A stretch of 64,000 nt of DNA from Saprospiraceae bacterium (GTDB taxonomy: Bacteria > Bacteroidota > Bacteroidia > Chitinophagales > Saprospiraceae). Position 1 is the stretch's first letter; each line of letters opens with the position of its first letter. The notes under the pieces are model-generated. The model was given only the letters and a program-made list of their open reading frames with translations, searched no databases and was not told where the DNA came from. Positions 469 through 62,420 of this stretch are shown here, piece after piece. The stretch covers positions 77,654 to 141,653 of the forward strand of contig JADJJU010000011.1 in the NCBI GenBank assembly GCA_016706365.1, read 5' to 3'. The position numbers were made by a program, and so were the translations under genes.

Positions 469-735
469 AACAGCCGCTTAGGCAATATAATGTTAAAAAC
501 GAAAAAATAGGAAAAAAATTTAGCTTCTGCAAAGAAGGGAAGAATCAGTGAGAAGAAAAGAGAAGCTAAGAACATTGGGAAGGAATTGAACATGAGTTAG
601 AAGGGACGGAGGAGCGAAAGCGAAGTGCGCACCCCCCGGGAAATCTAAGACCTTAGGCTGTTGGCTTTTAGCTATTGGCGAACAGCCGAAGGCTTCTAGC
701 TTCTGGCCTCTGGCCTGTGGCTGAACAGCCAGTTT
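469..735. repeat. mosaic low-complexity intergenic block (AACAGCC-punctuated)
   Basis: AACAGCC at 469, 681 and 724; purine-rich stuttered words at about 490-640; hairpin GGCTGTT(656-662)/AACAGCC(681-687); words TTGGCTTTTAGCTATTGGC and GCTTCTAGCTTCTGGCCTCTGGCC are shared with other loci. Confidence 0.8.
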
Positions 736-956
736 GAGTGAAGCGTTGGGGTTGGTATCTTCTCCGACTCAAACAGACTCACACCCAAACAAACTCACAC
801 TCTACACCCCAGACTCAGCCGCGGGCTCCGCACGCACATCACCTCCGAAAAAAATTGACTGCGAAGCAGACAATTTTTTTCGGAGACATCACTTCTTCGT
901 GGCGTAGCCGGGAAGAAACATCACCTTTCAAGCCGTAGGCGTGGAAAGACATCACC
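724..956 (+). repeat. copy A of a conserved ~235-nt intergenic module (AACAGCCAG, G/T arm, C/A-rich words, ACATCAC hairpin array 836-956)
   Basis: Aligns by eye along its whole length with 3542-3774; ACATCAC(C) at 836, 886, 918 and 949. Confidence 0.85.
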
Positions 957-1018
957 TTATCACGTGTTAAGCCGGGAGAGCAGTCGCTATTGTTTCACAA
1001 ATCATTTACAATTCTGAA

Positions 1019-3451: not shown

Positions 3452-3548
3452 AACAGCTGCAACCTTGTTGCTGGTTGCTGGTTGCTGGTTGCTGGTTGCT
3501 GGTGAACAGCCGCTTCTAGCTCTGGCTTTTGGCTTTTGGCAAACAGCC
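3452..3548. repeat. AACAGCC-punctuated module including heptanucleotide microsatellite (GTTGCTG)x5 at 3467-3501
   Basis: AACAGCT at 3452, AACAGCC at 3505 and 3542; five exact tandem GTTGCTG units; words CTTCTAGCTCTGGCTTTTGGCTTTTGGC. Confidence 0.85.
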
Positions 3549-3774
3549 AGTGTGGGTGAAACGCTTGGTGTTTGTATCTTCTCCAACTCAAACTGACTCA
3601 CACCCATACAAACTCACGCTCTACACCCTGAACTCAATCGGGGGCTCCGCACGCACATCACCTCAGCAATAAATTGACTGCAAAGCAGACAATTTATTGC
3701 TGAGACATCACTTCTTCGCGGCGTAGCCATGAAGAAACATCACCTTTCCAGCCGCAGGTGCAGAAAGACATCAC
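3542..3774 (+). repeat. copy B of the ~235-nt intergenic module (ACATCAC hairpin array 3655-3774)
   Basis: Collinear with 724-956; ACATCAC(C) at 3655, 3705, 3737 and 3768. Confidence 0.85.
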
Positions 3775-3819
3775 AGCAGCTCCACACTCAAATTTAAAAT
3801 TAAAACAAAAAATATTTCC

Positions 3820-8243: not shown

Positions 8244-8249
8244 GAAAAT

Positions 8250-8441
8250 CTGGTTGCTGGTTGCTGGTTGAACAGCTAATTGGTGACTTGGTGAATTGGC
8301 GAATCAAACAGCCAATGAAACAGCCAATTACCAGCCTCGAAAACTACGAACTTAGGAGTTTTGCCCTGCATAGTCATGTGAGTGTGAGTGTGAGTGTCGT
8401 AGCTGGAAGCTACTGGAAGCATGGATGTGTGAGAAACAGCC
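8250..8441. repeat. AACAGCC-punctuated stuttered-word block
   Basis: (GGTTGCT)n at 8252-8270, AACAGCT at 8271, AACAGCC at 8307, 8319 and 8435; stutters TTGGTGACTTGGTGAATTGGCG, GTGAGTGTGAGTGTGAGTGT, GCTGGAAGCTACTGGAAGC. Confidence 0.8.
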
Positions 8442-8479: not shown

Positions 8480-8760
8480 GAATTGAGCCTTTTCTGTGAT
8501 GGATTTAGCCCTGAAAGGGCGCCATATACCAGCGAGGCGGCGCAGCCCCTCGCGAAAAAGCCGCGAGATTACGCTTCAAACCACCCATCGGCAAAAAGCA
8601 GTGAAGCGTTTTTTCATTTAATTGTTAACAGCCGGTGTATAGAAGATCCAGCAGTGGCCAGACCTGACGCTCGCGGCAGGGCCGGGCGACAGCGAGCTGC
8701 GAAACGTAGCGCAGCCCGCAGGGATGACCGCCCAAAATATTGCCTTGAGAGACTATGGAA
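8480..8760 (+). other. GC-rich mosaic of short perfect hairpins (possible structured RNA or REP-like cluster)
   Basis: GCCC-tgaaa-GGGC 8508-8520; CGAGG/CCTCG 8533-8552; CTCGCG/CGCGAG 8549-8567; ACGCTTCA/TGAAGCGT 8571-8609 followed by a T-run; GCTCGC/GCGAGC 8669-8697; GCTGCG/CGCAGC 8696-8715. Confidence 0.6.
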
Positions 8761-8845
8761 TTCGATTTAACAGTATCTTGGGCAAAAGTAAAGGCAGAGT
8801 ATTCTTTGGTCTTGCTTCATTTCAACAACAGTATAAAGTAGGGAT

Positions 8846-9781
8846 ATGCTTAACTTCATCCGGAGGTTCAAACTGACATACATGATTTACAACCTTTTCC
8901 AAAGGCGTAAATTGAAGCATAATGAAAAATTGTACAAATTACTGGGGCTAAAAAAGCGGTATTATTCTCCGATTTCAAGTGCCGACTTTGCTAACTGTGA
9001 CCCTTCGCGTATAAATAAAATTGTACAAACGCTTCCAGTGGAGTCGTCCTCACTCTATAAGGATCTGGATGCAGAATCACAGGAAAGCATTCGGAAATTT
9101 GATAAGGAAGGATATGCGGTAATCAAGAACTATCTTGACAAGGATACTGTATCTGCTGCAAATGCTGAAATCGCAGAATTGCTGAAAAGCGGAAAACTGA
9201 AATTCCGGTATAAGAACAAGATCATGTTTGCCATCCATCAATCAGAGCTCTTATATAAGATAGGGCAGGATGTAAGGCTGCTGGAGCTTCTGAATTCTTT
9301 GGCCGGTGATGAGATGAAGCTATTCCAAAGTATCAACTTCATCATGGGAAGCGAGCAAAAAACGCACTCTGACAGCATTCATATGACAACATATCCCTTA
9401 GGCGGACTGCTGGGAGTATGGATTGCACTCGATGATGTTGATGGGGACAATGGTCCATTACAATATTACCCTGGCAGTCATAAACTTCCATACTATCTGA
9501 ATTCGGATTATGATAATTCCGGCAATGCATTTATGATTGGGAATAAAGACTATTCGGCATATGAGGCGATGATTGCTAAAAAACTGGAGGATCAGAAAGA
9601 GAACAAAAAAATATTCACAGCAAAGAAGGGAGATTTGTTGATTTGGCATGCAAATCTGTTCCACGGAGGAGAGCCCCATACCAATAAATCAAAGACCAGA
9701 AGAAGTATGGTGTTTCATTATTATTCGGCAAACAGGATCTGTTATCATGAGATTTCGCAGAGGCCGGCGCTGATGAGTTGA
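8846..9781 (+). CDS. phytanoyl-CoA dioxygenase (PhyH) family Fe(II)/2-oxoglutarate oxygenase
   Basis: 311 aa; HSDSIHMTT ... GPLQYYPGSHKLP ... LLIWHANLFHGG pattern. Confidence 0.8.
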   Translation: MLNFIRRFKLTYMIYNLFQRRKLKHNEKLYKLLGLKKRYYSPISSADFANCDPSRINKIVQTLPVESSSLYKDLDAESQESIRKFDKEGYAVIKNYLDKDTVSAANAEIAELLKSGKLKFRYKNKIMFAIHQSELLYKIGQDVRLLELLNSLAGDEMKLFQSINFIMGSEQKTHSDSIHMTTYPLGGLLGVWIALDDVDGDNGPLQYYPGSHKLPYYLNSDYDNSGNAFMIGNKDYSAYEAMIAKKLEDQKENKKIFTAKKGDLLIWHANLFHGGEPHTNKSKTRRSMVFHYYSANRICYHEISQRPALMS

Positions 9782-9960
9782 GCAGCCGGTAAACAGCCTC
9801 GTTAAAGCGGTAAAGCGTTGAATCGGAAACAGCCGAAAAGAAGCTGCAAGCTACAAGATGCAAGCTGCAAGAAAACAGCCGGAACAGCATTGTTAAAGAT
9901 TTGAGTAGGGAGCTGCTGTAGGGGCCAATCAAGATTCGTCATATCTCTGCAGGAACAGCC
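9781..9960. repeat. AACAGCC-punctuated stuttered-word block
   Basis: AGCAGCC at 9781; AACAGCC at 9792, 9828, 9874 and 9954; AACAGCA at 9883; stutters GTTAAAGCGGTAAAGCG and AAGCTGCAAGCTACAAGATGCAAGCTGCAAG. Confidence 0.8.
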
Positions 9961-10822: not shown

Positions 10823-10985
10823 GCTGATTGTGTGGTTTTGAACGGGAAACATACAATTGAAAAAGCAAGATATGGAATTTTTCAAATGAGAAATGCCCTG
10901 GTTGTAATCCCTTAATCCTGAATAAAATATAGTATTCCACAATTAAAATAAATGCTGTAAATTTACTATTCGTCGCACCAACCTT

Positions 10986-12647
10986 ATGCTAACCTTAAAA
11001 GTGTATAGACACAAAAAAATGCGCAGCACAATTACATGCCTTCTTTTACTGATAATATGCACTACTCTCAGTGCAGCTTTGTATCAGGTCGGGCCAGGAA
11101 AACCTTACGCTAACCTGCAGGCAGTGACAGGTCTTTTGAATCCCGGAGATATTGTTGAAGTGGACGGGGATGAGACCTATCCCGGAGGCGTTGTATTCAA
11201 CAGGCCCGGTGCTCCCGGTAATAAAATCATTATTCGGGGTATTCGAATCAACAATCAGCGGCCTATTATAAGTGGAGCTGTTAATACTGTAACATTTGCA
11301 ACACCATTTCCATATAATAATCCGAATGGAGGGCATCATTATATTTTTGAAGGATTCGAAATCACTGCAGGAAGCTTCAGAGGGATTTTTCATCAGGCAA
11401 AAGATCTGACTATCAGAGATTGCTATGTTCATGACTGTCCCGCTCACGGAATATTGGGTGCAGATCAGGGGGCCGGATCATTGCTGCTGGAATACACAGA
11501 AGTGACAAAATGCGGATCGGGAACAAGCCAACATCAGGTATATATGGCAACAGATCAGATTAATAATCCCGGGAGTGTTTTCCGAATGCAATTTTGTTAT
11601 ATACATGAAGCAACAGGTGGAAATAATGTAAAATCCAGAGCTGAGAGAAATGAAATATACTTCAATTGGGTGGAAGGGGCTTTTTATCATGAGTTGGAGC
11701 TGATCGGTGCCGATTTTAATGCAGATGGTGGCAATCCACAACTTGCCAGAGAGGACAGCGACGTAGTGGGAAATGTGTTAATAAAAAGATCAACACTCGC
11801 AGGGAATGAAATCAATTTTTCTGTCACCCGAATTGGTGGTGACGGTACAGGTGCTAGTCATGGACGATATCGATTTGTGAATAATACTATCATCTGCGGA
11901 ACAGGAGCGGTATTTCGTATTTTCGATCAATTGCAGTCTGCAGAATTTCATAATAATGTCTTATATAATCCCTCTGGCGTTCCCAGATTTAAGCGCACAG
12001 TTGAAGCTATCTGGATAGAAGGAATGGAAATTATTGCAGGGCAAAACAATTGGCTGGAGACTGGAATACTTGAAGTTCCAGCAGGAATTAGCGGTACCAT
12101 TTTTGGCTCGGATCCAGGCTTTCAGGATCTCAACAATAATATACTTATCCCGATTGCAGGAAGCCCTTTAATCAATTCAGGCAATTTGCCTACTTCCTCT
12201 CCGGCCGGATTCCCATTTCCCAATCCCCTTCCCTCTCCTACTCATCATCCTCCTTCAGGAACCTGGATGTCACCGGAAGAAAATACACCCCGATTTATAG
12301 TAAATATCATTGATATCGGAGCCTTTGAATTTGGATCCAGTTTACCTGTTTCACTCCTGCACTTCGATGCTAAAACTCTGGATGATTCCAGAATTAAACT
12401 CGATTGGAAGATAAGTGAAGCAGATGATTTGGAATATTTTGAAGTATACAAAAGTACAGATGCAAGCAACTGGACAAAAGCTGGTATTATTCCGTCCGGG
12501 CATGAATCTGAAAATCTGGAAAGTTATACCTGGACTGATGATTCCTCTACGAATGGAATTAATTATTACAAACTAAGAATTATCAATCGGGACGGAAGCT
12601 TCAAATATTCACCACTTGCAAGTGCAAGCATTCTCAAGGAAGATTAA
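10986..12647 (+). CDS. secreted right-handed parallel beta-helix protein, truncated before its T9SS sorting domain
   Basis: Signal peptide; beta-helix-like repeats with NN/H-rich turns; Ig-like region near the C-terminus; ends at TAA 12645-12647, with the frame continuing afterwards. Confidence 0.7.
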   Translation: MLTLKVYRHKKMRSTITCLLLLIICTTLSAALYQVGPGKPYANLQAVTGLLNPGDIVEVDGDETYPGGVVFNRPGAPGNKIIIRGIRINNQRPIISGAVNTVTFATPFPYNNPNGGHHYIFEGFEITAGSFRGIFHQAKDLTIRDCYVHDCPAHGILGADQGAGSLLLEYTEVTKCGSGTSQHQVYMATDQINNPGSVFRMQFCYIHEATGGNNVKSRAERNEIYFNWVEGAFYHELELIGADFNADGGNPQLAREDSDVVGNVLIKRSTLAGNEINFSVTRIGGDGTGASHGRYRFVNNTIICGTGAVFRIFDQLQSAEFHNNVLYNPSGVPRFKRTVEAIWIEGMEIIAGQNNWLETGILEVPAGISGTIFGSDPGFQDLNNNILIPIAGSPLINSGNLPTSSPAGFPFPNPLPSPTHHPPSGTWMSPEENTPRFIVNIIDIGAFEFGSSLPVSLLHFDAKTLDDSRIKLDWKISEADDLEYFEVYKSTDASNWTKAGIIPSGHESENLESYTWTDDSSTNGINYYKLRIINRDGSFKYSPLASASILKED

Positions 12648-18413: not shown

Positions 18414-18570
18414 GAAGGGTTCTGTTTGGCATTTTTAAAGACTGATAAAAGTAAACAATTTTATTAACCGGGCAAAAGGGGATTGGGTTTGGAGAGATAA
18501 TATATGTGCGTTTGAGTGAGAGTATTTTGAGTTGTTTTTTTGACGAAATGAAGTGGCTGGCTCCTGGAGA

Positions 18571-18951
18571 GGTGATGTCCCGGCTTCGCTGCGCTATGCC
18601 GGGGTGATGTCTTTTCACAGCTTCGCTGTTAAAAGGTGATGTTTTTTTGTTTTCTGCAGCTTCGCTTAGAAAACAAAAAGGTGATGTGCAAGCGGAGCTT
18701 GCGGATGAGTAGTGTGTCTTGTGCATGAGTCTGTTTGAGAGTTGAGTCTGTGCGTGTTTTGACAAGTACCAAACTCCTCACTCGAACAAACCCACACTCA
18801 AAACAATGAACCCAACCGCGAGTCCGCGAGATCGCACATCACCTTTGTTCTATTGAGGCGTAGCCGAAAATAGAATAAAGACATCACTTCTTCGCAGCGC
18901 AGCTGTGAAGAAACATCACCTTGCAAGCCGTAGGCGCAGCAAGACATCACC
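18571..18951. repeat. head-to-head inverted pair of ACATCAC hairpin-array modules
   Basis: GGTGATGT at 18571, 18603, 18635 and 18680 (reverse orientation) faces ACATCAC(C) at 18836, 18881, 18913 and 18944; G/T-rich arm 18705-18760 opposite C/A-rich arm 18768-18815. Confidence 0.85.
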
Positions 18952-22523: not shown

Positions 22524-22761
22524 GAGAATAGTTGAAATTCATCTGTATTAAGAGTTGCATAACGATATCAATCAAAAAACAATTTTCACTATTCAAGTTG
22601 AAAATTTGTCACTCATCAAAATTTCTACTTCGACTTTAATTTTTTATCTCAATCTTTGAGAAGAATAATCAGAGTTTGCATCGTTATTCATTTGCAGAGG
22701 CGTTCTGCAAGGCGGATTCCGAAAAGCCATAAGAGTAGGAAAAATATTTAAATAACTAAAA

Positions 22762-23166
22762 ATGAAATTTATAATTTTATCTATCAGCTTATTATGGTCA
22801 TTCCAGACGCTGACCGCCCAAAGTATTTCAGGCCATATCCTGGAACTTGAATCCTATACCAAATGGGATGCCGTGGAAAAAGAATGGGCAGGTGTTCGCA
22901 AAGATTGGGAAGTTCAAGCCAAAAAGGAAAATACGGCTGTTATTAGTGCCGGCTTATTGCTGTCATTTGAATCATACATCAAATGGGATGCGGTGGAAAC
23001 ATCATGGAAAAAACGCCGTGACAAATGGGTAAAAGAAGTTGAAAAAGCAGTCACTAACGCACAGGTTGCAGCGCTTCTCATTGAACTGGAATCCAACATT
23101 AAATGGACCGCAGTGGATGAAAAATGGAAAGGACGCAGAGAGGCCTGGATTAGTGAATTGAAATAA
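22762..23166 (+). CDS. small secreted protein made of three Trp-rich ~38-aa repeats
   Basis: Signal peptide, then LELESYTKWDAVEKEWAGVRKDW / LSFESYIKWDAVETSWKKRRDKW / IELESNIKWTAVDEKWKGRREAW. Confidence 0.65.
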   Translation: MKFIILSISLLWSFQTLTAQSISGHILELESYTKWDAVEKEWAGVRKDWEVQAKKENTAVISAGLLLSFESYIKWDAVETSWKKRRDKWVKEVEKAVTNAQVAALLIELESNIKWTAVDEKWKGRREAWISELK

Positions 23167-23169
23167 TGG

Positions 23170-23275
23170 TCTGAACAGCCGTTGAATCGGTTAATCGGTT
23201 AAGTGTATAAGCGAAGTGTGAAGAAACAGCCGCTATTGGCTTTTGGCTGTTAGCTTTTGGCTAACAGCCGGAGCT
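23170..23275. repeat. AACAGCC-punctuated module with perfect 10-bp hairpin
   Basis: AACAGCC at 23174, 23225 and 23263; GGCTGTTAGC(23245-23254)-ttttg-GCTAACAGCC(23260-23269); stutter GAATCGGTTAATCGGTTAAG. Confidence 0.85.
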
Positions 23276-23309: not shown

Positions 23310-23487
23310 AATGCCTTCCGGATTTCCCAACCTTAAATGTATTCCCTCCACTAGTATGTCATATTTTTCAAGATGTCTCAAATGTGCCCTCTTAAAACTC
23401 CGTATGGAGTTTAACATGAATAACCCCGTGCAAGTGAAACGCAGCTCGGGATACATAATCACTCCTCCCCGAACTCCGTAGGTGTTC
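23310..23487. repeat. three-hairpin element locus (left copy truncated, right copy complete at 23395-23487)
   Basis: AATGCCTTCCGGATT at 23310-23324; AAACTCC-gtat-GGAGTTT at 23395-23412; CCCGTGC..GCTCGGG; GAACTCC-gta-GGTGTTC at 23471-23487; homologous to 46159-46409. Confidence 0.8.
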
Positions 23488-23581
23488 AATTTGAAATGAA
23501 CCGGCATTCTCCAGGTTTAGATTCAATTCCAATTAATGCTGGCTTTATTGACTTTCGAGTTATATGTGAATTACTGTTTTG

Positions 23582-24183
23582 TCCTCACCATTCACTTTTC
23601 AAATTTCACATTTCAATTTTCACATCTTACTTCTAACCATTTACCATTTACTATTCACCATTTACTTTTCTCATCTCACATTTCACATTTGACATCTCAC
23701 CCTTCTCTTCCTGCCATTTACTATTCCCTTTTCACTTTTCACTTTTTTTCCTCTTCTAACCATTCACCATTTACTATTCACCATTTACTTTTCTCATCTC
23801 ACATTTCACATTTGACATCTCACCCTTCTCTTCTTACCATTTACTATTCACCATTTACTATTCACTTTTCAATTTTCACATTTCACTTTTCACGTCTTAC
23901 TTCTAACCATTCACCATTTACTATTCACCATTTACTATTCTCATCTCACATTTCACATTTGACATCTCACACTTCTCTTCTTACCATTTACTATTCACCA
24001 TTTACTATTCACTTTTCACTTTTCACATTTCACTTTTCACTTCTTACTTCTAACCATTCACTATTCACCATTCACTATTCACCATTTACTTTTCTCATCT
24101 CACATTTCACATTTGACATCTCACCCTTCTCTTCCTGCCATTTACTATTCCCTTTTCACTTTTCACTTTTTTCTCCCTCCTTT
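23582..24183 (+). repeat. G-depleted tandem repeat (4 units; unit starts 23631, 23754, 23901 and 24048; periods 123, 147 and 147 nt)
   Basis: Only 7 G counted in 602 nt on the + strand; built from words TCACTTTTCAC, CCATTTACTATTCAC, CATCTCACATTTCACATTTGACATCTCAC. Confidence 0.9.
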
Positions 24184-24296
24184 GGAAAAATAAATTCCAA
24201 ATCGTACCTTCCCGTTTTATACCCGCCAAGATCTATGAACTGCTCAACCCGAGCCTGTCTTCTATTTATTGATATCACAAAAATTCAATTCAGCCC

Positions 24297-26246
24297 ATGC
24301 AAAAGTTCTTGCTCCTACTGTCCTTGACATTTTTAACACTCATCCTGAATGCTCAAAGTAATGAAGCATATTTCATGTCACATTCCACGCTGACACCAGA
24401 CGGACAAACGATTATTTTTGATTATGACAATGATCTTTGGAAGGTCAGCACCGCGGGTGGCTCTGCCTCCAGATTGACTGCGATGGATGGAAATGAACAG
24501 TATCCCCGTGTCTCACCTGATGGGAAATGGCTTGCATTTTCGGGCAATCAATATGGGGGGACCGATGTATATATTATGCCACTTAATGGGGGCGATATCA
24601 AACAATTAACTTATCATGAAGCCTTTGATCACGTGGATAGCTGGTCCTGGGATTCAAAAAATATTTACTTCACATCCAATCGTTACAATCGTCAGTCAGG
24701 TTATAAAGTTTCCATTGATGGGGGAACTCCTGTGAGGTTATTTGCCAATTATTTCAATACTGTCCATTCCATTGTTGAGCATCCCAATGGTGAAATATTC
24801 TTCAATGAAACCTGGGAAAGCAAGTCATCAGCTAACCGCAAAAGATACAAGGGAGCATATAATCCAGATTTACAATCATATAACCCCAAAACAAAAGAAT
24901 TTAAAGTTTACACTTCATGGAACGGCAAAGATTTCTGGCCGACTTTTGACAAGCAGGGCAAAATTTATTTTGTATCGGATGAGGCAAATGGGGAATACAA
25001 TCTTTATGAACTGGAAGGGAAAAATAAAAAACAACTTAGCAAATTCAATACCTCCATCAGCAGGCCACAAGTAAGTGCTAATGGAGAAAAAATAGTATTC
25101 GAAAAGGATTACCAGTTATGGGTATATGATGTGAAGTCTAAGGATAGCAAAAAAGTGAATATCAATATTTTCAACAATAGTGTTCTTACCAAAAGCCAGG
25201 ATTTTGATGTTAAAGGGAAAATTGAAAGCTTTGATGTTTCCCCTGATGGGAAAAAAATGGCTTTCGTGTCAAGAGGTAAACTTTTTGCTTCTGATATAAA
25301 AGGTCAATTTGTCAATCTTTTATCCACCGGTACAGGACGGGTGCTGGAAGTTAACTGGATGGCAGACAATAAAACAATGATCTATGGTAAAACCAATGAA
25401 AATGGCTATGCTAATTATTTCACCATTGCTGCTGATGGATCCTCAGCTGAAAAACAAATCACCAATGTAAGTCGTAACGATCGTGATCTCAGTCTCAATC
25501 ATGACAAAAGTATGGGAGTATATATCAGCGGTCGCGATGAAGTGAGAACAATTGACCTCAAATCGCTGACGACTTCATTAATTGTAAAGGACGAAATCTG
25601 GGGATTTCAAAATCCGGCTCCGGGCTTTTCACCGGACGGAGAGTATGTTGTTTTCACAGTTCGCCGCAATTTTGAACAAGATATTGTAGTACATCATTTG
25701 AAATCAAAAACCACTACTAATCTTACAAAAACTGCCATCACAGAAACCAATCCTGTTTGGTCTCCGGATGGAAAATGGATTTATTTTATTTCCGACCGGC
25801 TTGGCCCGGGATATCCATATGGGCTTAGAGATGCACATATCTATCGCATACCCCTTGAGAAACATGAGGATCCCTATAAGAGCGACAAGTATGCAGAACT
25901 TTTTGCAGCGGACTCTACTAAAAAAGATGACGTAAAAAAAGAGGATAAACAGGATGAAAAGAAAGACGATAAGAAAAGCGACAAGAAAGATGACAAGAAA
26001 GATGACAAGAAAGATGAGAAAAAAGATTCAATAAAAATTGTAACCCCTCTCAGTATTAATCCGGAAGGATTGACACGCTTGGTGGAGCAGGTGGGGCCTA
26101 CTTTTGGAACCCAAAGCAATTTATTTCTGTCAAAGAAAGATGATAAGATTACTATGATTTTTGCATCTAATCATAGTGAAGGTAAATCCAATTGGTGGAA
26201 GACAACCTATGAACCATTCACTCCTCCCAAGACAGAAAAAAATTGA
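24297..26246 (+). CDS. tricorn-protease-like S41 peptidase, N-terminal beta-propeller part (frameshifted gene)
   Basis: Signal peptide; repeated SPDGKWLAF/SPDGKKMAF PD40-type blades; Lys/Asp-rich insert; ends 4 nt after the A7 run at 26236-26242. Confidence 0.8.
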   Translation: MQKFLLLLSLTFLTLILNAQSNEAYFMSHSTLTPDGQTIIFDYDNDLWKVSTAGGSASRLTAMDGNEQYPRVSPDGKWLAFSGNQYGGTDVYIMPLNGGDIKQLTYHEAFDHVDSWSWDSKNIYFTSNRYNRQSGYKVSIDGGTPVRLFANYFNTVHSIVEHPNGEIFFNETWESKSSANRKRYKGAYNPDLQSYNPKTKEFKVYTSWNGKDFWPTFDKQGKIYFVSDEANGEYNLYELEGKNKKQLSKFNTSISRPQVSANGEKIVFEKDYQLWVYDVKSKDSKKVNINIFNNSVLTKSQDFDVKGKIESFDVSPDGKKMAFVSRGKLFASDIKGQFVNLLSTGTGRVLEVNWMADNKTMIYGKTNENGYANYFTIAADGSSAEKQITNVSRNDRDLSLNHDKSMGVYISGRDEVRTIDLKSLTTSLIVKDEIWGFQNPAPGFSPDGEYVVFTVRRNFEQDIVVHHLKSKTTTNLTKTAITETNPVWSPDGKWIYFISDRLGPGYPYGLRDAHIYRIPLEKHEDPYKSDKYAELFAADSTKKDDVKKEDKQDEKKDDKKSDKKDDKKDDKKDEKKDSIKIVTPLSINPEGLTRLVEQVGPTFGTQSNLFLSKKDDKITMIFASNHSEGKSNWWKTTYEPFTPPKTEKN

Positions 26247-27513
26247 AGGGGCAGTTCAGGGGTCTGTCTATATCGTCGAGGTGAGCGGGAAAATGTATGG
26301 ATTGATTTCGGGCGATATTCATACTGTCAATCTGGAAGGTAAAAAAGTCGAGAAGGTCGAAATCTCTTACAAATTCCGCAAGAATTTACAGGAAGAATTC
26401 AATCAAATGTTTCATGAAACCTGGGCGAATATTGAGGAGAATTTTTACAATGAGACTTTCCATGGCATTGACTGGCCCGGAATGAAAAAAAGGTATGCGG
26501 CATATCTCCCTCATCTGGGATCAAGAGCTGATTTGCGAGTAGTATTGAATGACATGCTTGGAGAGTTAAATGCTTCCCATCTCGGATTTAATTCTGCAGG
26601 AGATGAGGAGAAAATATTTTACAAAACACAAAATGCTGAAACCGGAATTATTTTTGAAGAAGAGAAGCCATACACTGTCAAATACGTGGTTAAAAACAGT
26701 CCAGCTGATAAGAAAGGTAAAGATATCAAAGCAGGTGATGTGTTGACACATGTCAATGGTCAGGCAGTGGATACAAAAATGTCCAGACACTACTATTTCG
26801 CTCAGCCTTCGCTGGATGAAGAACTAAGTCTCAGCTTTAGTCGCGGCTCAGAAAAATACGATGTCAAAGTAAGACCTCAGGCTTTTAGTGCGCTTGTATC
26901 CCTGCTGTATGATGAGTGGATCGACAACAATAGAAGTCTTGTTCGCAGCAAAGGAAAAAACAGAATTGCCTACTCACATATGCGTAACATGGGCAAAGGA
27001 GAATTGGATAAATTCATGATGGAAATGAATAGCGAAGAATATGCAAAAGAGGGCTTAATTCTGGATTTAAGATTCAACACCGGAGGAAATGTTCATGATG
27101 ATGTTTTGCGCTTCCTTAATCAGCGTCCATACTTAAAGTGGAAATATCGTGAAGGAGCATTCACAGTCCAACCCAATTTTACCCCTGCTGCCCATCCGAT
27201 TGTATTGCTTATCAATGAACAATCATTGAGCGATGCTGAAATGACAGCCGCAGGATTCAAGGAACTCGGACTAGGAAAAATCGTCGGAACGGAGACATAC
27301 AGATGGATTATTTTCACTTCCGGAAAAGGACTGGTGGATGGTTCCTTCTATCGGATTCCGGGATGGGGATGTTATACCCTGGATGGAAAGAATCTGGAGC
27401 AGGAGGGTGTTCAGCCTGATATTCCTGTAGCCAATACATTCAAGGATCGTTTGGAAGGCAGAGATCCGCAATTGGAGAGAGCTGTGAGTGAAATTATGGG
27501 GCAGTTGAAGTAG
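26161..27513 (+). CDS. tricorn-protease-like S41 peptidase, C-terminal PDZ plus S41 catalytic part
   Basis: Frame +1 relative to 24297-26246; PDZ-like VVKNSPADKKGKDIKAGDVLTHVNGQAV; S41 motifs LILDLRFNTGGNV and LINEQSLSDAEM; the real continuation begins at about 26236. Confidence 0.8.
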   Translation: MHLIIVKVNPIGGRQPMNHSLLPRQKKIEGAVQGSVYIVEVSGKMYGLISGDIHTVNLEGKKVEKVEISYKFRKNLQEEFNQMFHETWANIEENFYNETFHGIDWPGMKKRYAAYLPHLGSRADLRVVLNDMLGELNASHLGFNSAGDEEKIFYKTQNAETGIIFEEEKPYTVKYVVKNSPADKKGKDIKAGDVLTHVNGQAVDTKMSRHYYFAQPSLDEELSLSFSRGSEKYDVKVRPQAFSALVSLLYDEWIDNNRSLVRSKGKNRIAYSHMRNMGKGELDKFMMEMNSEEYAKEGLILDLRFNTGGNVHDDVLRFLNQRPYLKWKYREGAFTVQPNFTPAAHPIVLLINEQSLSDAEMTAAGFKELGLGKIVGTETYRWIIFTSGKGLVDGSFYRIPGWGCYTLDGKNLEQEGVQPDIPVANTFKDRLEGRDPQLERAVSEIMGQLK

Positions 27514-27600
27514 CAGCCGGCCTTTAGCTGTTGGCTATTGGCTATTGGCAAACAGCCGGGAAGAAGTTAGAAGTTTTGGAAGAGCCTTTTCCAACAGCAG
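27512..27600. repeat. AACAGCC-punctuated module starting at a stop codon
   Basis: AGCAGCC at 27512 overlaps the TAG at 27511-27513; AACAGCC at 27551; AACAGCA at 27593; stutters TTGGCTATTGGCTATTGGC and GAAGAAGTTAGAAGTTTTGGAAG. Confidence 0.8.
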
Positions 27601-38038: not shown

Positions 38039-39070
38039 ATGACTATAGATAATGTGAGTGTTCCTGGAAGTACTACATATTGTCCCGCACCCGAGATTTC
38101 TATTACTCCCACTAATGTTACCTGCGCTGGTGGTAATAATGGAAGTATTCTGGTAACTGCAACTGGTGGTCTACAACCATATAATGTGAGCTGGAGCGGG
38201 GCGAGCAGTGGAAATCCGGGAGGAACGGAAATTGTTAGCTCAGGCGGAATGTACAATATCACGAATCTTGTGACAGGCATGTACAATGTCACTGTTACTG
38301 ATGCAAATTCACTAACTGCCGTCGCCAATACCACACTTATTGCTCTGAATCCTGCAGAAAATGCAGCCTTTGCTTATCCCCTATCCGGTTATTGCCGTGC
38401 AGGATCTGACCCTCTTCCTCAAATATATGGTAATACAGGAGGTACATTTACTGCACCAGTGCAAGTCAGTATAAACCCGGTAAATGGTCTTATTGATGTA
38501 TCAGCAAGCACAGCAGGAGGGCCATATAATATTACATATACTACTAATGGACCATGTCCTGCAATGATGACTTTTGCTGTAACAATCGTGAATTGTCAAC
38601 CCGGAGCAAGCTTGAGCGATAATATTATTATTGACAATGGAGCTCTTGCTAAAGCCGATCCGGGAGATCGGATCCGGCTTGCCGCCACCATCAGCAATAC
38701 TCAAACCGCCAATTATGAAGGGATGCAAATTACGCTCAATAATGATCCTCGTGTAACTTTTGTGAATAATTCATTCAAAACAACACCAGTTGCTGTTGAT
38801 GATGCCTACAATAGCGTTCAAAATACTCTTCTGACGATTTTAGTAGCTAATGGGCTTATTACCAATGACTTCGATGAAAACAAACCAGGATTAAGTGTAA
38901 CTTCCTTCAATTCAATGAGCGTCGCAGGGGGAACAGTAGTAGTAAATCCAAATGGCAGTTTTACTTATAACCCGCCAAATGGTTTTACAGGTAATGATAG
39001 CTTTAATTATACTATCACTGACTCAGATTTACAAACAAATTCAGCTACAGTAAAAATCAGAGTACAATGA
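38039..39070 (+). CDS. continuation of the SprB-repeat protein (frame open from 37943)
   Basis: DQNGSTTITRTGLTGTTLQIQVCGQFNADAETMTIDNVSVPG completes the duplicated domain; another SprB repeat; cadherin/VCBS-like VAVDDAY...NDSFNYTITD; the stop overlaps the next ATG (ATGA). Confidence 0.8.
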   Translation: MTIDNVSVPGSTTYCPAPEISITPTNVTCAGGNNGSILVTATGGLQPYNVSWSGASSGNPGGTEIVSSGGMYNITNLVTGMYNVTVTDANSLTAVANTTLIALNPAENAAFAYPLSGYCRAGSDPLPQIYGNTGGTFTAPVQVSINPVNGLIDVSASTAGGPYNITYTTNGPCPAMMTFAVTIVNCQPGASLSDNIIIDNGALAKADPGDRIRLAATISNTQTANYEGMQITLNNDPRVTFVNNSFKTTPVAVDDAYNSVQNTLLTILVANGLITNDFDENKPGLSVTSFNSMSVAGGTVVVNPNGSFTYNPPNGFTGNDSFNYTITDSDLQTNSATVKIRVQ

Positions 39071-42000
39071 AAAATCAACATAAAAATCCAAAGTGCAAAA
39101 GTATCAAGAATGCAATTTTAAAAACCAAGCTCCTGAATTGGATTAAAAATATAAATTTCATGCTTCCATTAAAACCTTACCTATTTGATTATAAGAGCTC
39201 ATCTAAAATGGGTATTTCAATCTTATTGTTGTGTCTAATTTGGACTGACATTCAGGCCCAAACCTATCCAGTACCGGGATTTACACTTCCTGCAGGTAAA
39301 ACCATTGTCATTACCTATGAAGTAGATGTCAATGCCAACTCATGCCCTACTGGTACTTTACCCACCCAAAATATAAGTAATCAAAGCAACGTGTCAGGTT
39401 CTAATTTTGCTACAGTACAGACGGATGATCCGGATATGGCTGGTGCATCTAATCCAACACTTACTCCCTTTAGCTCATTGAGTTTAGGAAATCTTGTCTA
39501 TCAGGACAATAATCGCAACAGTGTATTTGATGCTGGTGATGCAGGAATAAATGGTGTTTTATTAAATCTGTATTTGGACAATGGTGATGGTATACTTTCA
39601 ATATTGGATGGTGCTCCTTTAACCAACAGCACAACAGCCGGAGGTGGCTTATATTCCTTTTCTGTCTGTCCGGGTATTTATATTGTAGAGGTGGCTGCTT
39701 CCAATTTTCTCCCCGGTGGTACCTTGTATGATAATGGCCTGATGGCGGCATTAGTCAGCAGTCCCCTTACTTCTCCAGCCGACCCGGATTTTAGTGATAC
39801 CGATAACGACGACAACGGTAATCCAGTTACCGGTTTTGGCGTAGCCTCGGCAACCTTTTCGATGGCCTATGGCACGGAGCCTGACGGCGTCGATATGAAT
39901 ACCAATAATCGCGTCGATTTTGGTTTCAAAACTCCCACCACCGTTACGATCAATGATGTGACCATGCAGGAGAATACTGGGGGCGGTACTACCAACTTTA
40001 ACTTTACGATTACACGGAACGATAATTCGGAAGCATTCAACCTTACGGTTAATTCAGCCGACGGCACGGCTGTCAGCCCCTCGGATTTTACTGCTATTTC
40101 AGGCGCAACTCTTTCGTTCTTTGGAGGGGGCTCTTTCACACAAAACTTAACTGTGCTGGTGAATCAGGATAACATCGTGGAAGCCAATGAAACGTTTACG
40201 ATATTGTTGAGTGGCGCACCGGCAAGTGTGCTTATCACTGATGGCTCAGGACTCGGCACAATCACGAACGATGATGCCTCTGTAGTAACACTTACAGGTA
40301 CACAATCACTTAACGAAGGGGCCGGTGGTGCAACGACAGATTTTACATTTCAGGCTTCTTTGAACAATCCGGTTCAGGGTGGTTTTACGATTGCCTACAA
40401 CACTAATGACGGTTCGGCACAAATAATTGATTCTGACTATTCTGATAATGATAATTCTATCATTTTTACCGGTACAGCAGGTGAAAGTCATGATATAACA
40501 GTTGTCGTCAATGATGATAATAAAGTTGAAATTAATGAGACATTTACAGTGTCACTGGGTGCCATATCAGGCGCTCCTGCAGGAGTAAGCAGCGCGGGCT
40601 CTCCTCAGACAGGAACGATTTTGAATGATGATAGTGCAGTAGTCACTTTATCCGTTGGGGGAGCTGGAAATATGCTGAATGAAGGAAATGCCGGACCAAC
40701 GAATTTTGTCTATAATGTTACCTTAAATAATCCTGTCCAGGGTGGATTTACTATTGCATATTCCAGCGATGATGGAACTGCCACTTTAGCAGATAACGAT
40801 TACATTAATAATGATGCCTCTTTAATTTTTGCCGGAACTGCCGGAGAAATACAAAATATTACCATTCAGGCTAATGGCGATTTGAAAGTGGAGGCAAATG
40901 AGACGTTCACAGTAAATTTGGGTGCTATAACGCTTGCCCCTGCCGGTGTAACTTCAGCAGGCTCTCCTCAATCGGGAACTATTCTAAATGATGATTCTGC
41001 TACTGTTACTTTAACTGGGGGAGGTGCTGCAAATGAAGGAAATACAGGTACGACTCCAAGGGTGTTTACAGCAACTTTGAATAATCCTGTTCAGGGTGGT
41101 TTCTCAATTTCTTATGCAACAACAGATGGAACAGCCACCACAGCTGATAGTGACTATGCAGATAATGACGGTCCGGATCTGGTTTTTGCCGGGACTGCTA
41201 ATGAAACTGAATTGATTACAGTGCTGGTCAATGGCGATTTGAAAGTAGAAGCAAATGAAACTTTTACAGTAACGCTTGGAACAATTTCAGGAGCCCCGGC
41301 TGGTGTGACAGTGGGTGGAACAGCTCAAACAGGAACGATTTCAAATGATGAAATTGACTTCGGAGATGCCCCGGATCCTGCTTATCCAACATTACTCGCA
41401 TCTAATGGTGCAAGACATAACACTATTTTAGGATTTCATTTAGGGGCAACAATTGATGGAGACCTGGATGCACAACAAAGTGCAATGGCTAACGGCGATG
41501 GAGCAGATGAAGATGGAGTGACACTTCCAGCTGTCATGGTTACAGGAACAACTGCTGATATTGTAGTGAATGCAACGTCAATTGGACTTCTTAATGCATG
41601 GGTTGATTTCAATGACAATGGATCATGGGCTGATCCCGGAGAGCAGATATTTACAAATACACCTTTGGTTGCAGGCAATAATAATCTTTCATTTGCTGTT
41701 CCTCCGGGTGCAGTTGTAGGTACTTCATTTGCAAGATTTAGACTGTCAAGTGCTTCAGGTTTATCTTTCACAGGCGCAGCTGCAGATGGTGAAGTAGAAG
41801 ATTATCAGGTAAATATTCTTAATAACCAGTTCTCAATTGACAATCCAATAGTTACAGAAGGAGATGCCGGAACAACCACAATGACTTTTACCGTAAGCAG
41901 AACCACAAACGCCAATGATTCTTCCGTTGATTTTGACATCACAGGGGGAACAGCCACTTCTGGAACAGATTATACAAGCATACCAGGTGCAACTATTAAT

Positions 42001-61468: not shown

Positions 61469-61499
61469 CAGAAAATGAATTTGCTGAATGGCAAAGATA

Positions 61500-61805
61500 G
61501 TAATAGTGATGATTTAAGGTTTCAGTTTTCAGGCGTCAGGTTTCAGATTTTAGATTGAACAGCCGCTTCTTTCCCAAAGCTTTGGGAACTAGCTCCTGGC
61601 TTAAACAGTCGCAAAACCGTTTAACCGATTGTCGGCTGTGTAACGGACTGTTTGTCGAGAGACAGGGCGTATGGCAATTCGCCCTTATATGCTTGCATCT
61701 ATCGGTTGTTTCCTTCTCAACGCCTCAACCTTTTAACGCCTTAACGAAACACCTCAACCACACACACACTCCCACCTCGATTAACCGATTACCCGATTAA
61801 CCGAT
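61500..61805. repeat. mosaic stuttered-word intergenic block
   Basis: GGTTTCAGTTTTCAGGCGTCAGGTTTCAG stutter; AACAGCC at 61558; 16-bp palindrome TCCCAAAGCTTTGGGA at 61572-61587; AACAGTC at 61604; TTAACCGATT word at 61621, about 61781 and about 61797; C/A-rich words. Confidence 0.8.
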
Positions 61806-61808
61806 TGT

Positions 61809-62420
61809 TCAAACACGTTGTGTTGACACCCAGCTCATCCAGATTTCCTGAGTAAGATAGAGGATCTTATTCTCCTGACAAACTTTAATGGTGTGTCCTG
61901 TACCACCGCCCAGTGGGTCTGTTGGATCTATGTAAAAGAAAGCAAAAGATACCGGATCCAGCGGAATGGATTTGGAGCCAATGATGGCCATCGTGTCCCG
62001 AAAAAGATAGGCTGCCTTCATGCCATTTCTATCTTTATGTCCATCCATGTATCGGTTGACAAGATTGGAATTCGCTTTGTTTGATCTGGTATAATATACG
62101 AGATCATCATCTGCTGCCAGGTCTACCTGATCCATTGAACACGACTGGGAATAAGGGTTTATATTCTTCTTGCGGTGATTTTCATATGGCAAAATAGATT
62201 CAAATCTGGAAGGATCGACACGACAAACTCCTTCTGAAAAAAGCGCATCAGATCCTTCTGCATTTCCGCTTCGGAATATGACATGAGGTAATTCTGTAGC
62301 CAGCAAAACACCGAGATGAGTTAGCTTTACTTTGTCTTGTTCGGGTACATTTCTTTTTCCGCCCAGAAAAATGCGGGAAGTGCTGATTGTGAGTTGGTCT
62401 TTAAAAGTTTGGAAATTCAT
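61809..62420 (-). CDS. hypothetical protein, possibly SLOG/DprA-LOG-like Rossmann fold
   Basis: 203 aa; RSGNAEGSDALF resembles the SLOG G-x-A-x-G-x-D loop and LGGGTGHT a distal Gly-rich loop; weak. Confidence 0.35.
   Translation of the reverse strand: MNFQTFKDQLTISTSRIFLGGKRNVPEQDKVKLTHLGVLLATELPHVIFRSGNAEGSDALFSEGVCRVDPSRFESILPYENHRKKNINPYSQSCSMDQVDLAADDDLVYYTRSNKANSNLVNRYMDGHKDRNGMKAAYLFRDTMAIIGSKSIPLDPVSFAFFYIDPTDPLGGGTGHTIKVCQENKILYLTQEIWMSWVSTQRV

Follow-up and report, generated by a model that had tools for sequence, protein, structure and literature searches.

AACAGCC marks the junctions of mosaic repeat blocks lying immediately outside genes in a Saprospiraceae genome and its relatives

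Results

Repeat blocks between the genes of the window

The window, by which we mean the whole 64,000-nucleotide stretch of DNA from an uncultured Saprospiraceae lineage analyzed here, contains intergenic blocks of short stuttered words. The block flagged in the preliminary description (23167..23275, + strand) lies 3' of a 134-aa gene. It carries AACAGCC at 23174, 23225 and 23263 and two copies of AATCGGTT, with 7 nt between the stop at 23166 and the first heptamer. A perfect 10-bp hairpin reported at 23245-23269 was confirmed: GGCTGTTAGC at 23245 pairs with GCTAACAGCC at 23260, and the block folds with a z-score of -3.05. Further downstream, a 580-nt period-7 array of about 83 units (23591..24170) is TTCACTT-like on the + strand, the - strand being the G-rich one. 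This G-rich strand is directed away from the downstream gene (start 24297), and the array, which has no punctuation, behaves as a reversed array of the same kind. The 263-aa ORF at 23536-24327 is created by this array and is spurious.

At the left end of the window, a single AACAGCC (469..475, +) is located 20 nt after the intrinsic terminator of secG (stem 424-449), so that the secG block starts behind a canonical terminator. It is followed by a stutter block (656..735, +) with period-7 GGCTNTT/GGCCTCT words and AACAGCC at 681 and 724, in which GGCTGTT at 656 pairs with AACAGCC at 681. This block is the 5' part of a composite repeat of about 300 nt. The rest of the composite (746..960, +) consists of a CA-rich stretch and three hairpins separated by the conserved heptamer ACATCAC, and the hairpin array has an 87% identical copy at 3565-3774, within the second ACATCAC-separated array (3565..3779, +). 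The stutter block at 3452..3550 (+) contains (GGTTGCT)5 and GGCTTTT words with AACAGCT at 3452 and AACAGCC at 3505 and 3542; it is located 88 nt upstream of the start of a - strand OMP gene, on the antisense strand and directed outward. An inverted pair of ACATCAC-hairpin arrays free of stutter modules was found at 18565-18690 (-) and 18826-18950 (+), with a lone AACAGCC (+) nearby, which the exact search places at 19056.

Three further blocks adjoin stop codons. Directly after the pirin stop (8243), a block at 8244..8330 (+) contains (CTGGTTG)3 and (AATTGGTG)3, the word arrays beginning 7 nt from the stop. Its heptamers are AACAGCT at 8271 and AACAGCC at 8307 and 8319, with distal single copies at 8435 and 8627 (+). 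The first unit of the block at 9779..9960 (+) overlaps the PhyH stop (TG[AGCAGCC], unit in brackets); AACAGCC follows at 9792, 9828, 9874 and 9954, with modules such as TCGTTAAAGCG... and (AAGCTGC)4. Similarly, the S41 peptidase stop is overlapped (T[AGCAGCC]) by a block of GGCTATT words with AACAGCC at 27551 (27511..27560, +).

The spacer at 61469-61811 had been described as keeping + orientation beside - strand genes. A + block is indeed present (61511..61612), composed of (TTTCAGG)n, AACAGCC at 61558, the palindrome TCCCAAAGCTTTGGGA and AACAGTC at 61604. This + block is placed 43 nt before the start of the - strand DUF6929 gene, on the antisense strand and directed outward, and relatives L149 and L150 carry exact GGCTGTT copies at the equivalent place. 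The spacer is not uniformly +, since it also houses a degenerate - strand block (61640..61811) that begins on the stop of a - strand gene, 61809-62420 (TG[AACAATC]GGTTAATCGG...). Its word families are those of other blocks (AATCGGTT, GTGTG, CGTTAAGGCGTT), and its punctuation has decayed to AACAACC, AACAGTC and CACAGCC, giving four variants and no exact heptamer. Exact matching misses this block at 61640-61811.

AACAGCC is enriched in the intergenic blocks

An exact search found 29 AACAGCC in the 64 kb, 23 on the + and 6 on the - strand. Dinucleotide shuffles gave 6.1 +/- 2.5 copies with a maximum of 12, and none of 100 shuffles reached 29. When the array region 23560-24200 was left out, AACAGCC was the top 7-mer of the intergenic DNA of the window (19 copies vs 2 of GGCTGTT). 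All 19 intergenic + copies listed earlier are present, the one given at 19055 moving by a single nucleotide. The listed near variants (AACAGCT 3452/8271; AGCAGCC 9781/27512; AACAGCA 9883/27593; AACAGTC 61604) and shared words (GCTTCTAGC at 692/3512; TAACCGATT at 61622/61782/61798) were correctly placed to within +/-1 nt. A spacing of 31-52 nt did not hold; neighboring heptamers are 12-212 nt apart in the window.

Coding DNA of the window contains eight AACAGCC, against about five expected. One coding copy had been noted near 39634, and the exact search recovers it at 39633 together with 35620, 41130 and 41949 on the + strand and 2474, 22935, 32609 and 60374 on the - strand. Thus the surplus is limited to the intergenic blocks, and AACAGCC is not a genome-wide skewed word, because its coding copies are at chance level and without strand bias (4:4). 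The + bias in the window arises because the genes that bear blocks there are mostly + strand genes. Most genes of the window have no block beside them.

Blocks are mosaics of tandem words punctuated by the heptamer

In each module, a 6-9 nt word is repeated in a short tandem array behind AACAGCC. The heptamer sits at every module junction, and the blocks are mosaics of such tandem words. In every block, TRF detected arrays with a period of 6-8 and 2-5 copies, rising to about 83 copies at 23591-24170. At least ten different word families were distinguished, and the blocks do not repeat one or a few characteristic units. AACAGCC, the conserved unit, is mostly single and stands between arrays. 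A limited set of module types recurs at unrelated loci and also in different genomes, and the modules are, as first described, real, non-coding, dispersed and homologous between loci.

The strand asymmetry within blocks is likewise strong. Curated blocks (4.9 kb) contain 109 exact AACAGCC in sense and 2 in antisense orientation, together with 20 AGCAGCC and 26 other one-mismatch variants. Outside the motif, the AACAGCC strand has 30.4% G and 14.5% C, so the words are C-poor. Three exact cytosines in a C-depleted background look like selection on AACAGCC itself. The words do not contain regularly spaced runs of three or more G and hence are not quadruplex-type sequences.

Some modules of the window fold significantly (z -2.4 to -5). 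In contrast, the long blocks of relatives fold like shuffles (z about 0), and a consensus terminator scan near blocks found the secG terminator only. A hairpin or terminator as a general property of the blocks was therefore rejected. In the linked ACATCAC arrays, compensatory changes were seen in 18 of 25 stem pairs; these hairpins carry ACATCAC/ATGTCAC tags and lack GTAG and CGTC tags. Rho utilization (rut) sites are stretches of 70-80 nt or more in which the RNA is C-rich, G-poor and weakly structured. The inbound (complement) strand of the blocks is rut-like in 405 of 795 78-nt windows (51%) and the outbound strand in 0 of 795, with a background of 8-11%. The rut-like character is thus confined to the inbound strand and is a matter of composition only. 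Inbound RNA is weakly structured, with an MFE of -15.9 kcal/mol for 141 nt.

Orientation follows the nearest gene end

The statement that blocks often begin at stop codons was borne out in the window and in relatives. Besides PhyH and the S41 peptidase, stop codons of genes in L125, L128, L142 and L146 are overlapped. Reversed blocks were observed upstream of starts, in the window at 3452 and 61511 and elsewhere in L128, L149, L150 and L084. One rule describes both situations: the AACAGCC strand runs outward from the nearest gene end, sense after stops and antisense before starts. About 17 independent sites fit this rule vs one lone heptamer against it, in a census that is small, partly hand-curated and includes several orthologous sites. 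Curation was done by hand because the repeats create spurious ORFs, which confound an automated ORF-based census. Among loci chosen independently of the motif, 26 of the 32 exact non-coding AACAGCC point outward. An outward G>C skew is present at 5' flanks even where there is no block.

Both orientations occur inside single spacers, namely in the window (61469-61811) and in L142, L149 and L150. In L142, two convergent genes each have their own co-oriented block; in L149 and L150, a forward block at the stop is combined with a reversed block before the next start. In L128, opposite composites are 15 kb apart between + strand genes. These mixed orientations and the chance-level coding copies (4:4) contradict the chromosome-level, KOPS/Chi-like polarity that had been proposed. 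Orientation tracks the local gene and not the replichore, which is the outcome that the preliminary description had itself named as speaking against its proposal. The GC skew of the window is too weak for replichore placement. The polarity is gene-relative, a phenomenon of the repeat family and not a replichore signal. Nor do the observations support a purely transcript-level role of the blocks in 3' UTRs: some blocks precede starts in antisense, and the secG block follows an intrinsic terminator.

Blocks turn over rapidly between relatives

Relatives with 78-86% identical flanking coding DNA have blocks at the same sites, and these orthologous blocks differ in words, module number and length. 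PhyH coding DNA is 86% and 78% identical; spacer lengths come to 602/658/1086 and 192/303/865 nt, and the mosaics differ. In L002, a strain from another sample, the flagged block is shorter by one AATCGGTT unit, and its first heptamer is mutated. (AAGCGTTG)n is present in 2 copies in the window vs about 9 in L124, and L126 shows a tandem duplication at module level (117 nt x 3.9). The comparison therefore shows both copy-number change of word arrays between strains and tandem duplication of whole modules. Word slippage and tandem duplication of adjacent modules appear to account for the differences, with no defined inserted unit. Word arrays such as (GAAAGTT)n can contain an inserted small palindrome, CCCCAAAGCTTTGGGG.

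Across four relatives, three different stop-codon/block junctions are found on a conserved C-terminus. This shows that the block boundary has repeatedly been reset onto the stop codon. We also considered that a block may donate the stop by truncating the gene. This was rejected, since the PhyH C-terminus is intact within 0-2 residues; the blocks reach the last dispensable codon and the protein is not truncated.

Occurrence in other genomes

The same exact heptamer and grammar were found by motif-based search in two distant Bacteroidota MAGs, L084 (Prolixibacteraceae) and L032. A scan of a genome collection for three AACAGCC at module spacing listed mostly unrelated coding or long-period repeats; Bacteroidota loci among the matches listed were L084, L032, L029, L046, L051, L055, L062, L106 and L117. 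A metagenome scan with AACAGCCTCGTTAAAGCG gave five contigs of the lineage, all from metagenome SXGS01, and the remaining matches were due to chance. Certain arrays of Flavobacteriia have GGCTGTT on the G-rich strand close to the stop, which is the opposite motif orientation. The factor common to the phylum may therefore be the G-rich-outward rule and not AACAGCC. At the cyanobacterial locus L059, AACAGCC alternates with the STRR word CCCCAGT.

Among the matches listed in a scan of viral contigs there were fixed-period tandem repeats and no such grammar. Rfam searches of the window and L084 at gathering and permissive thresholds placed no family on the blocks. The 64-kb window encodes no transposase, reverse transcriptase, HUH nuclease or RAYT. 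CRISPR arrays have repeats of 23 nt or more between unique spacers, usually alongside cas genes; the blocks are unlike them, as the repeat is 7 nt long, the low-complexity stutter "spacers" are shared between loci and the window has no cas genes. A literature search for AACAGCC and for heptamer repeats in Bacteroidetes returned analogues and no description of AACAGCC blocks.

Discussion

Relation to known repeats

Intergenic repeats of heptamers, known since 1990, were shown in 2007 to form the most abundant class of long simple repeats in bacteria. We know of no accepted function for them. Cyanobacterial STRR, which Mazel in 1990 and Elhai in 2008 are said to have described, reportedly comprise several intergenic tandem heptamer families with tiny palindromic elements nested inside. 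The blocks resemble STRR in having a palindrome inside arrays (CCCCAAAGCTTTGGGG in (GAAAGTT)n). To our knowledge, neither a punctuation heptamer between different word arrays nor stop-codon anchoring or outward polarity has been described for STRR. The blocks differ from STRR in all three features and in phylum. They share tandem units of 5-11 nt and copy-number polymorphism with repeats of the LSSR/STRR type, but are not built from a few characteristic units.

A closer parallel in placement is provided by the intergenic G-rich period-7 tandem repeats GGGAATC of Xanthomonas and GGGGAYT of Nostoc (Rehm et al. 2015, PMC4692102). These repeats lie less than 50 bp from a stop or overlap it, with the G-rich strand as coding strand, and also occur just upstream of ORFs on the antisense strand; convergent inverted pairs share one spacer, and length varies between species (PMC4692102). 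They consist of one quadruplex-capable G-tract unit, their loci were called genomically stable, and their function is unknown (PMC4692102). The AACAGCC blocks have the same stop-proximal, G-rich coding-strand or antisense-upstream placement. In contrast to them, the blocks contain many C-poor words without G-tracts, and the heptamer that divides these words is conserved and not itself repeated; modules are probably shuffled from locus to locus, spacers are hypervariable and the host is a member of the Bacteroidota. TAACTGA direct repeats of Beggiatoaceae, Cyanobacteria and five Bacteroidetes are likewise intergenic and fixed in orientation relative to the neighboring gene, but there the heptamer is the repeated unit and lies mostly just upstream of start codons in forward orientation (MacGregor 2015, PMC4679880). 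Gramella and Aequorivita have other intergenic heptamer repeats that are missing in close relatives (PMC4679880). AACAGCC differs from TAACTGA in being mostly single, between arrays of other words, in blocks that start at stop codons.

Mosaic and hairpin elements share other traits with the blocks. BIMEs are intergenic mosaics in which a small set of motifs varies in number and order, as it does here, and pneumococcal BOX elements are dispersed, intergenic and variable in the number of internal tandem modules. REP elements are imperfect palindromes of 20-40 nt, and the ACATCAC-hairpin arrays resemble them in their compensatory stems and constant unpaired tag. The palindromes of the REP superfamilies are tagged GTAG or CGTC (Di Nocera 2013, PMC3733652). 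The stutter modules differ from REP and BIME in being non-palindromic (z about 0 in long blocks), without these tags and without a RAYT in the window. BrickBuilt, a MITE/minisatellite of the Bacteroidetes species Porphyromonas gingivalis, contains a single 23-nt unit along with leader and tail subunits, has inverted ends and lies 49-591 nt from genes (PMC4596501). The blocks are dispersed, intergenic and variable in the number of internal tandem modules like BrickBuilt and BOX; unlike BrickBuilt, they have many word types and no defined ends, and abut or overlap stop codons. With no fixed ends, they lack the defined length, terminal inverted repeats and target-site duplication of a MITE, and convergent forward and reversed blocks are not sequence-matched termini. 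We read the blocks as a previously undescribed Bacteroidota variant of stop-codon-abutting heptameric repeats.

Origin and maintenance of the blocks

On balance, AACAGCC is probably the conserved unit at which modules join in a family of mosaic simple sequences that is found across the lineage and fills unconstrained DNA immediately outside genes, with outward, gene-relative polarity. Arrays would grow via replication slippage and unequal exchange. Recombination or template switching at the heptamer that blocks have in common may spread modules and reshuffle them among blocks, a step suggested by the mosaic pattern only. Such shuffling would keep recently propagated heptamers exact while old copies decay. 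Selection on transcription may maintain the outward polarity: RNA leaving the gene would be C-poor, and RNA entering across the block would be C-rich, G-poor and weakly structured, like a Rho-loading region. The presence of AACAGCC in distant Bacteroidota, at loci that came from a motif-based search, is not readily explained if turnover is purely neutral or selfish, and it hints that a conserved factor recognizes the heptamer.

A stronger role for transcription would make the blocks selected host elements, that is, directional insulators or RNA-protein platforms at which inbound RNA loads Rho and terminates, outbound transcripts are C-poor and Rho-resistant, and AACAGCC/GGCUGUU is a putative site of a conserved factor. 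Outward polarity at both 3' and 5' gene ends would suit this function, as would the rut-like inbound windows (51% vs 0% outbound) and the weak structure of inbound RNA. The heptamer remains exact although its surroundings are C-depleted, heptamer and grammar recur in distant Bacteroidota, and the analogous published repeats are mostly transcribed (PMC4692102). Against it, block content and length are hypervariable in close relatives and the punctuation of one block has decayed, which speaks against strong selection on individual sites; most genes of the window do without a block, and the outward skew at 5' flanks exists without blocks as well. We consider this explanation unlikely. Its extension, that the blocks are selected directional gene insulators throughout the Bacteroidota with AACAGCC (GGCUGUU in inbound RNA) as putative site of a nucleic-acid-binding factor, is quite doubtful. 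If true, a conserved factor would explain the heptamer in Chitinophagia-like, Prolixibacteraceae and other Bacteroidota genomes.

Mobility of the modules or of the whole composite through a transposase or HUH nuclease encoded elsewhere, with AACAGCC as cleavage or target site and each insertion adding one copy, appears improbable. The 87% identity of the composite of about 300 nt at two unrelated loci, its occurrence in both orientations, the REP-like hairpins maintained by compensatory changes, the palindrome CCCCAAAGCTTTGGGG inserted in word arrays and the dispersed module types would all be expected of a non-autonomous element. However, relatives differ by slippage and tandem duplication instead of by a unit with terminal repeats, consistent terminal inverted repeats are absent, and the hairpins bear neither of the tags (GTAG, CGTC) known from REP superfamilies; the 64 kb contain no transposase, reverse transcriptase or HUH gene, and nothing similar was seen among the viral contigs listed. 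Two readings of the heptamer as a signal on the chromosome carry far less weight. Motifs such as KOPS and Chi are over-represented across all coding DNA and change strand at ori and ter. Like them, AACAGCC is short and asymmetric, and its strand bias in the 64-kb window is strong (23:6); a few + copies adjoin - strand genes. It is unlike them in being at chance level in coding DNA (4:4), clustered in repeat blocks, present in both orientations in single spacers and within 15 kb between co-oriented genes, and predictable from the nearest gene end; a polar motif for a DNA translocase or recombination enzyme is thus highly improbable. A DNA uptake sequence or self-recognition tag would match a short, exact, highly over-represented motif that sometimes lies in hairpins downstream of genes. 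Such tags are enriched in coding and non-coding DNA in both orientations, whereas AACAGCC is not enriched in coding DNA, is nearly unidirectional within blocks and is embedded in stutter arrays. Known uptake sequences are also longer than a 7-mer, and we are not aware of competence in this bacterial group. We give this possibility next to no credence.

Implications

The blocks matter for annotation. They give rise to spurious ORFs, such as the one at 23536-24327 (263 aa) and antisense open frames that reach 147 codons in relatives, break short-read assemblies and shift annotated stop codons. Recognizing them improves the annotation of Bacteroidota MAGs. A conserved heptamer amid hypervariable arrays separates a maintained signal from surroundings that drift freely, and the close relatives available in this lineage permit turnover to be watched. 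The outward rule makes the Rho-loading explanation of inbound RNA directly testable. As Xanthomonas and Nostoc repeats follow the same rule, it suggests a general cause across three phyla.

Structure of the AACAGCC blocks

An exact search found 29 copies of AACAGCC in the 64-kb window, 23 on the + strand and six on the − strand, compared with 6.1 ± 2.5 (maximum 12) in dinucleotide-preserving shuffles of the window. Although this AT-rich genome has a GC content of 38.8%, AACAGCC is its top-ranked intergenic 7-mer in the window (19 copies versus two of the complement). The eight coding copies are at about chance level and split 4:4 between the strands. The intergenic heptamers listed in the preliminary description were confirmed, and all its positions, including those of the near variants, the shared words and a 10-bp hairpin, were right within one base. 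Its heptamer spacing of 31–52 nt was not reproduced; neighbouring heptamers lie 12–212 nt apart with no fixed value.

Between the heptamers of the window, Tandem Repeats Finder detected short arrays of 6–8 nt words (such as GGTTGCT, GGCTTTT, GGCTATT, AAGCTGC, AATCGGTT, AATTGGTG and TTTCAGG). Blocks totalling 4.9 kb, taken from the window and its relatives, were curated and oriented by the AACAGCC strand. This sample contained 109 exact AACAGCC, 20 AGCAGCC and 26 other one-mismatch variants, with only two exact copies on the complementary strand. Outside the heptamer the words contain 30.4% G and 14.5% C; therefore the bulk of the cytosines lies in the punctuation. C was never found directly 5' of the heptamer. 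The segments between heptamers form a limited set of module types, for example TCGTTAAAGCG(TTGAAGCG)n, GCTTCTGGCTTCTGGCT and AATTGTCG...AATGA, which are shared by unrelated loci and different genomes, as the preliminary description had proposed for the window. Thus, the blocks are mosaics with AACAGCC at every junction.

Some window modules have words of the form GGCTNTT, which nearly complement the heptamer, and these fold into significant hairpins (z −2.4 to −5). The long blocks of relatives folded no more strongly than shuffles. A consensus intrinsic terminator near blocks was found only at secG, where the block begins past it. At 23591–24170, about 83 imperfect heptamers (TTCACTT/TTCACAT/CATTTAC) form a 580-nt array that also shows higher-order periods of 70, 123 and 147 nt. 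Most of ORF 23536–24327 (263 aa) is made up of this array; the ORF lacks any Pfam match and is almost certainly spurious.

Orientation relative to gene ends

The AACAGCC strand runs outward from the nearest gene end, and this one rule fits all cases: the heptamer is on the sense strand past stops and on the antisense strand 5' of starts. Antisense blocks of this kind lie at 3452 and 61511 in the window and in L128 and L084, two loci from other genomes. About 17 independent sites follow the rule, against one lone heptamer at 19056. At three loci picked without regard to the motif, an outward direction holds for 26 of the 32 exact copies in non-coding DNA; the other six comprise hairpin partners, copies in the distal part of long forward blocks and the lone 19056 copy. 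The array 23591–24170 follows the rule without punctuation.

The orientation had previously been read as chromosome-level polarity. This reading was rejected, as coding copies are neither enriched nor skewed, both orientations occur in single spacers and the nearest gene end predicts the orientation. In spacer 61469–61811, where + orientation beside − genes had been noted, the + block is real. However, the spacer also holds an old − strand block starting on the stop codon of the − gene 61809–62420, with the same word families and decayed punctuation. Relatives carry both orientations side by side (L142, L149, L150, L128). Each of two convergent genes in L142 has its own co-oriented block. The L149 and L150 spacers, orthologues of the window's spacer near 61 kb, show a forward block at the stop, then a hairpin array, then a reversed block with exact GGCTGTT immediately 5' of the next gene's start. 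L128 has opposite composites 15 kb apart among + genes.

Separately, C exceeds G on the sense strand in the 80 nt 5' of gene starts (window, L128, L149). The mean outward GC skew of these 5' flanks is 0.17 (p = 3e-4, n = 46), present even without an AACAGCC block; 3' flanks lack such skew unless a block is present.

Turnover in relatives

Contigs L124–L127 encode PhyH proteins with 93, 88 and 81% identity, retain the order pirin–PhyH–DUF1295 and have spacers likewise full of AACAGCC-punctuated words (L126: 26 copies on one strand, none on the other). While coding DNA is 78–86% identical, spacer lengths are 602, 658 and 1086 nt and 192, 303 and 865 nt, and orthologous spacers differ in words and module numbers. 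One word array has two units in the window and about nine in L124, a 117-nt unit of complete modules is repeated 3.9 times in tandem in L126, and a single AATCGGTT unit separates the window from a strain whose upstream protein is identical. Word copy-number change, tandem duplication of modules, fast remodelling and a dispersed module repertoire are thus shown.

The PhyH C-terminus is kept within 0–2 residues, with three kinds of stop/block junction in four relatives (TGA-GCAGCC, TAA-ACAGCC, TAG-TTGAAAG). Therefore, block turnover is fast, and every time the blocks reach the last dispensable codon. The first heptamer overlaps the stop codon in several unrelated genes, as TG[AACAGCC] in L146, T[AACAGCC] in L128 and T[AGCAGCC] in the window's S41 peptidase gene and L142, in agreement with the block starts at stop codons described earlier.

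A GC-rich stretch (~60% GC) at 8640–8790, 5' of PhyH (GGCCAGACCTGACGCTCGCGGCAGGGCCG...GTAGCGCAGCCCGCAGGGATGACCGCCC), is conserved in L124 and L126/L127 and in its 3' part in L125, whereas the adjoining blocks lack this conservation. The stretch may represent either a structured leader or a further repeat. Nearby, at 8507–8552 (−), Acido-Lenti-1 gave a weak match below threshold.

Linked hairpin arrays and other repeats

Often the modules make up the 5' portion of a composite, with a CA-rich stretch and three hairpins after them; two window copies at unrelated loci are 87% identical. Between the hairpins stands a second conserved heptamer, which reads ACATCAC in the window and ATGTCAC, ACGTCAC or GCGTCAC in relatives. 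Arrays of three to four hairpins lie at 838–960, 3657–3779 and 18826–18950 (+), with a further array at 18565–18690 (−); relatives carry them at L126 2953–3075, L128 17262–17395, L146 200–322 and L149 about 10900–11020. They are usually 3' of AACAGCC modules and co-oriented. Stems vary between copies yet remain paired, and 18 of 25 predicted pairs are preserved via changes on both sides. The arrays are REP-like, but without GTAG or CGTC tags.

A dispersed 16–20 nt palindrome, CCCCAAAGCTTTGGGG, with a HindIII-site centre, interrupts word arrays at several loci, often those of (GAAAGTT)n. Its positions are 46535–46550 and 61573–61588 in the window, L124 529, L142 2575, L149 11305 and L126 4371, where more near-copies occur. 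The arrangement resembles that in cyanobacteria, whose heptamer arrays contain nested, very small dispersed repeats. A further repeat dispersed in intergenic DNA, AAAACTCCGTATGGAGTTTAACATGAATAACCCCG...GAACTCCGTAGGTGTTCAA, has internal hairpins and occurs at 23394–23502 and 46316–46424 (direct, 76%), with an inverted partner at 46191–46246. It is conserved in L002, a strain from another sample, where the sequence directly upstream is replaced.

Host and distribution

The window encodes Por_Secre_tail domains, SprB repeats, TonB-dependent and OMP beta-barrel proteins and two-component propeller regulators, which points to a Bacteroidota that glides and has a type IX secretion system (T9SS). The nearest named PhyH homologues are in Chitinophagaceae and Pedobacter (~60–65% identity), with closer relatives in metagenomes. 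ORF 39067–46026 (2319 aa), preceded by two SprB/cadherin-repeat genes, has internal repeats of ~360 and ~1870 nt, whose GTILNDD-type motifs resemble Calx-beta by eye; its product is probably a large surface adhesin related to the T9SS. At 22709–22741 (+), a DUF805b RNA motif scoring above the gathering threshold (Rfam RF02914, 44.6 bits) sits 20 nt 5' of a 134-aa gene (22762–23166) with three 40-aa repeats (...YxKWDAVExxW...) and no Pfam match. A 16-G run (63296–63311) lies in a 1.1-kb stretch past 62898 without a long ORF.

Species-representative genomes were scanned by motif, a noisy search. Among the matches listed, non-coding period-7/14 AACAGCC/AATAGCC-type arrays were almost only from Bacteroidota, and the distant Bacteroidota MAGs L084 (Prolixibacteraceae) and L032 showed the same grammar and outward orientation. 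One cyanobacterium among these matches alternated AACAGCC with the STRR word CCCCAGT. Since loci were found by motif, a wider Bacteroidota spread is suggestive only. In some pure arrays GGCTGTT, the G-rich strand, follows the stop; therefore the common feature may lie in an outward-running G-rich strand and not in how the heptamer is oriented. L084 3464–4010 (MAG OY764876.1) contains three tandem ~215-nt units, each starting with AACAGCC and containing CTCTGTG..ACTCAGTGAAAAACTCCGTGATACTCTGTGGTTAAG, a CAAACTCACAC stretch and a hairpin (TCCCGCAAAGGCGGA), a layout that parallels the window's composite, though in a distant family.

Discussion

Cyanobacterial STRRs carry nested small repeats. The AACAGCC blocks can be related to these, to TAACTGA repeats (PMC4679880), to REP/BIME mosaics (PMC3733652) and to the BrickBuilt MITE of P. 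gingivalis (PMC4596501). By analogy, the nearest published counterpart is the G-rich heptameric repeats of Xanthomonas and Nostoc, which lie at or on stop codons on the coding strand, also 5' of ORFs on the antisense strand, and in convergent pairs (PMC4692102); placement at stops, upstream of ORFs and in convergent pairs is shared. In contrast to known repeats, many different word arrays are here punctuated by a conserved heptamer that is not itself repeated, modules appear to be shuffled among loci, turnover is extremely fast and a Bacteroidota is the host. Neither an Rfam family nor a paper in the literature matched the blocks.

We consider a repeat family the probable explanation of the blocks. 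Arrays would expand by slippage and unequal exchange, and modules would be shuffled by recombination or template switching at the shared heptamer; such heptamer-based exchange would keep newly propagated copies exact. That the blocks are a selected insulator or binding platform is unlikely. A transposase-driven element is more doubtful still, as no transposase, reverse transcriptase or HUH nuclease lies within the window. A KOPS/Chi-type chromosome signal is highly improbable, given the evenly split coding copies and the two orientations within single spacers.

Within the repeat-family explanation, the local outward polarity may, judging from base composition, reflect selection on transcription. 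Of the 78-nt windows on the strand transcribed inbound, heading into a gene across the block, 51% are rich in C, poor in G and weakly structured, against 0% on the outbound strand and 8–11% in background. In summary, the AACAGCC blocks are a real, well-defined repeat system, soundly described at the outset with an overinterpreted polarity, and they would be of greater interest if the outward polarity turns out to be functional.
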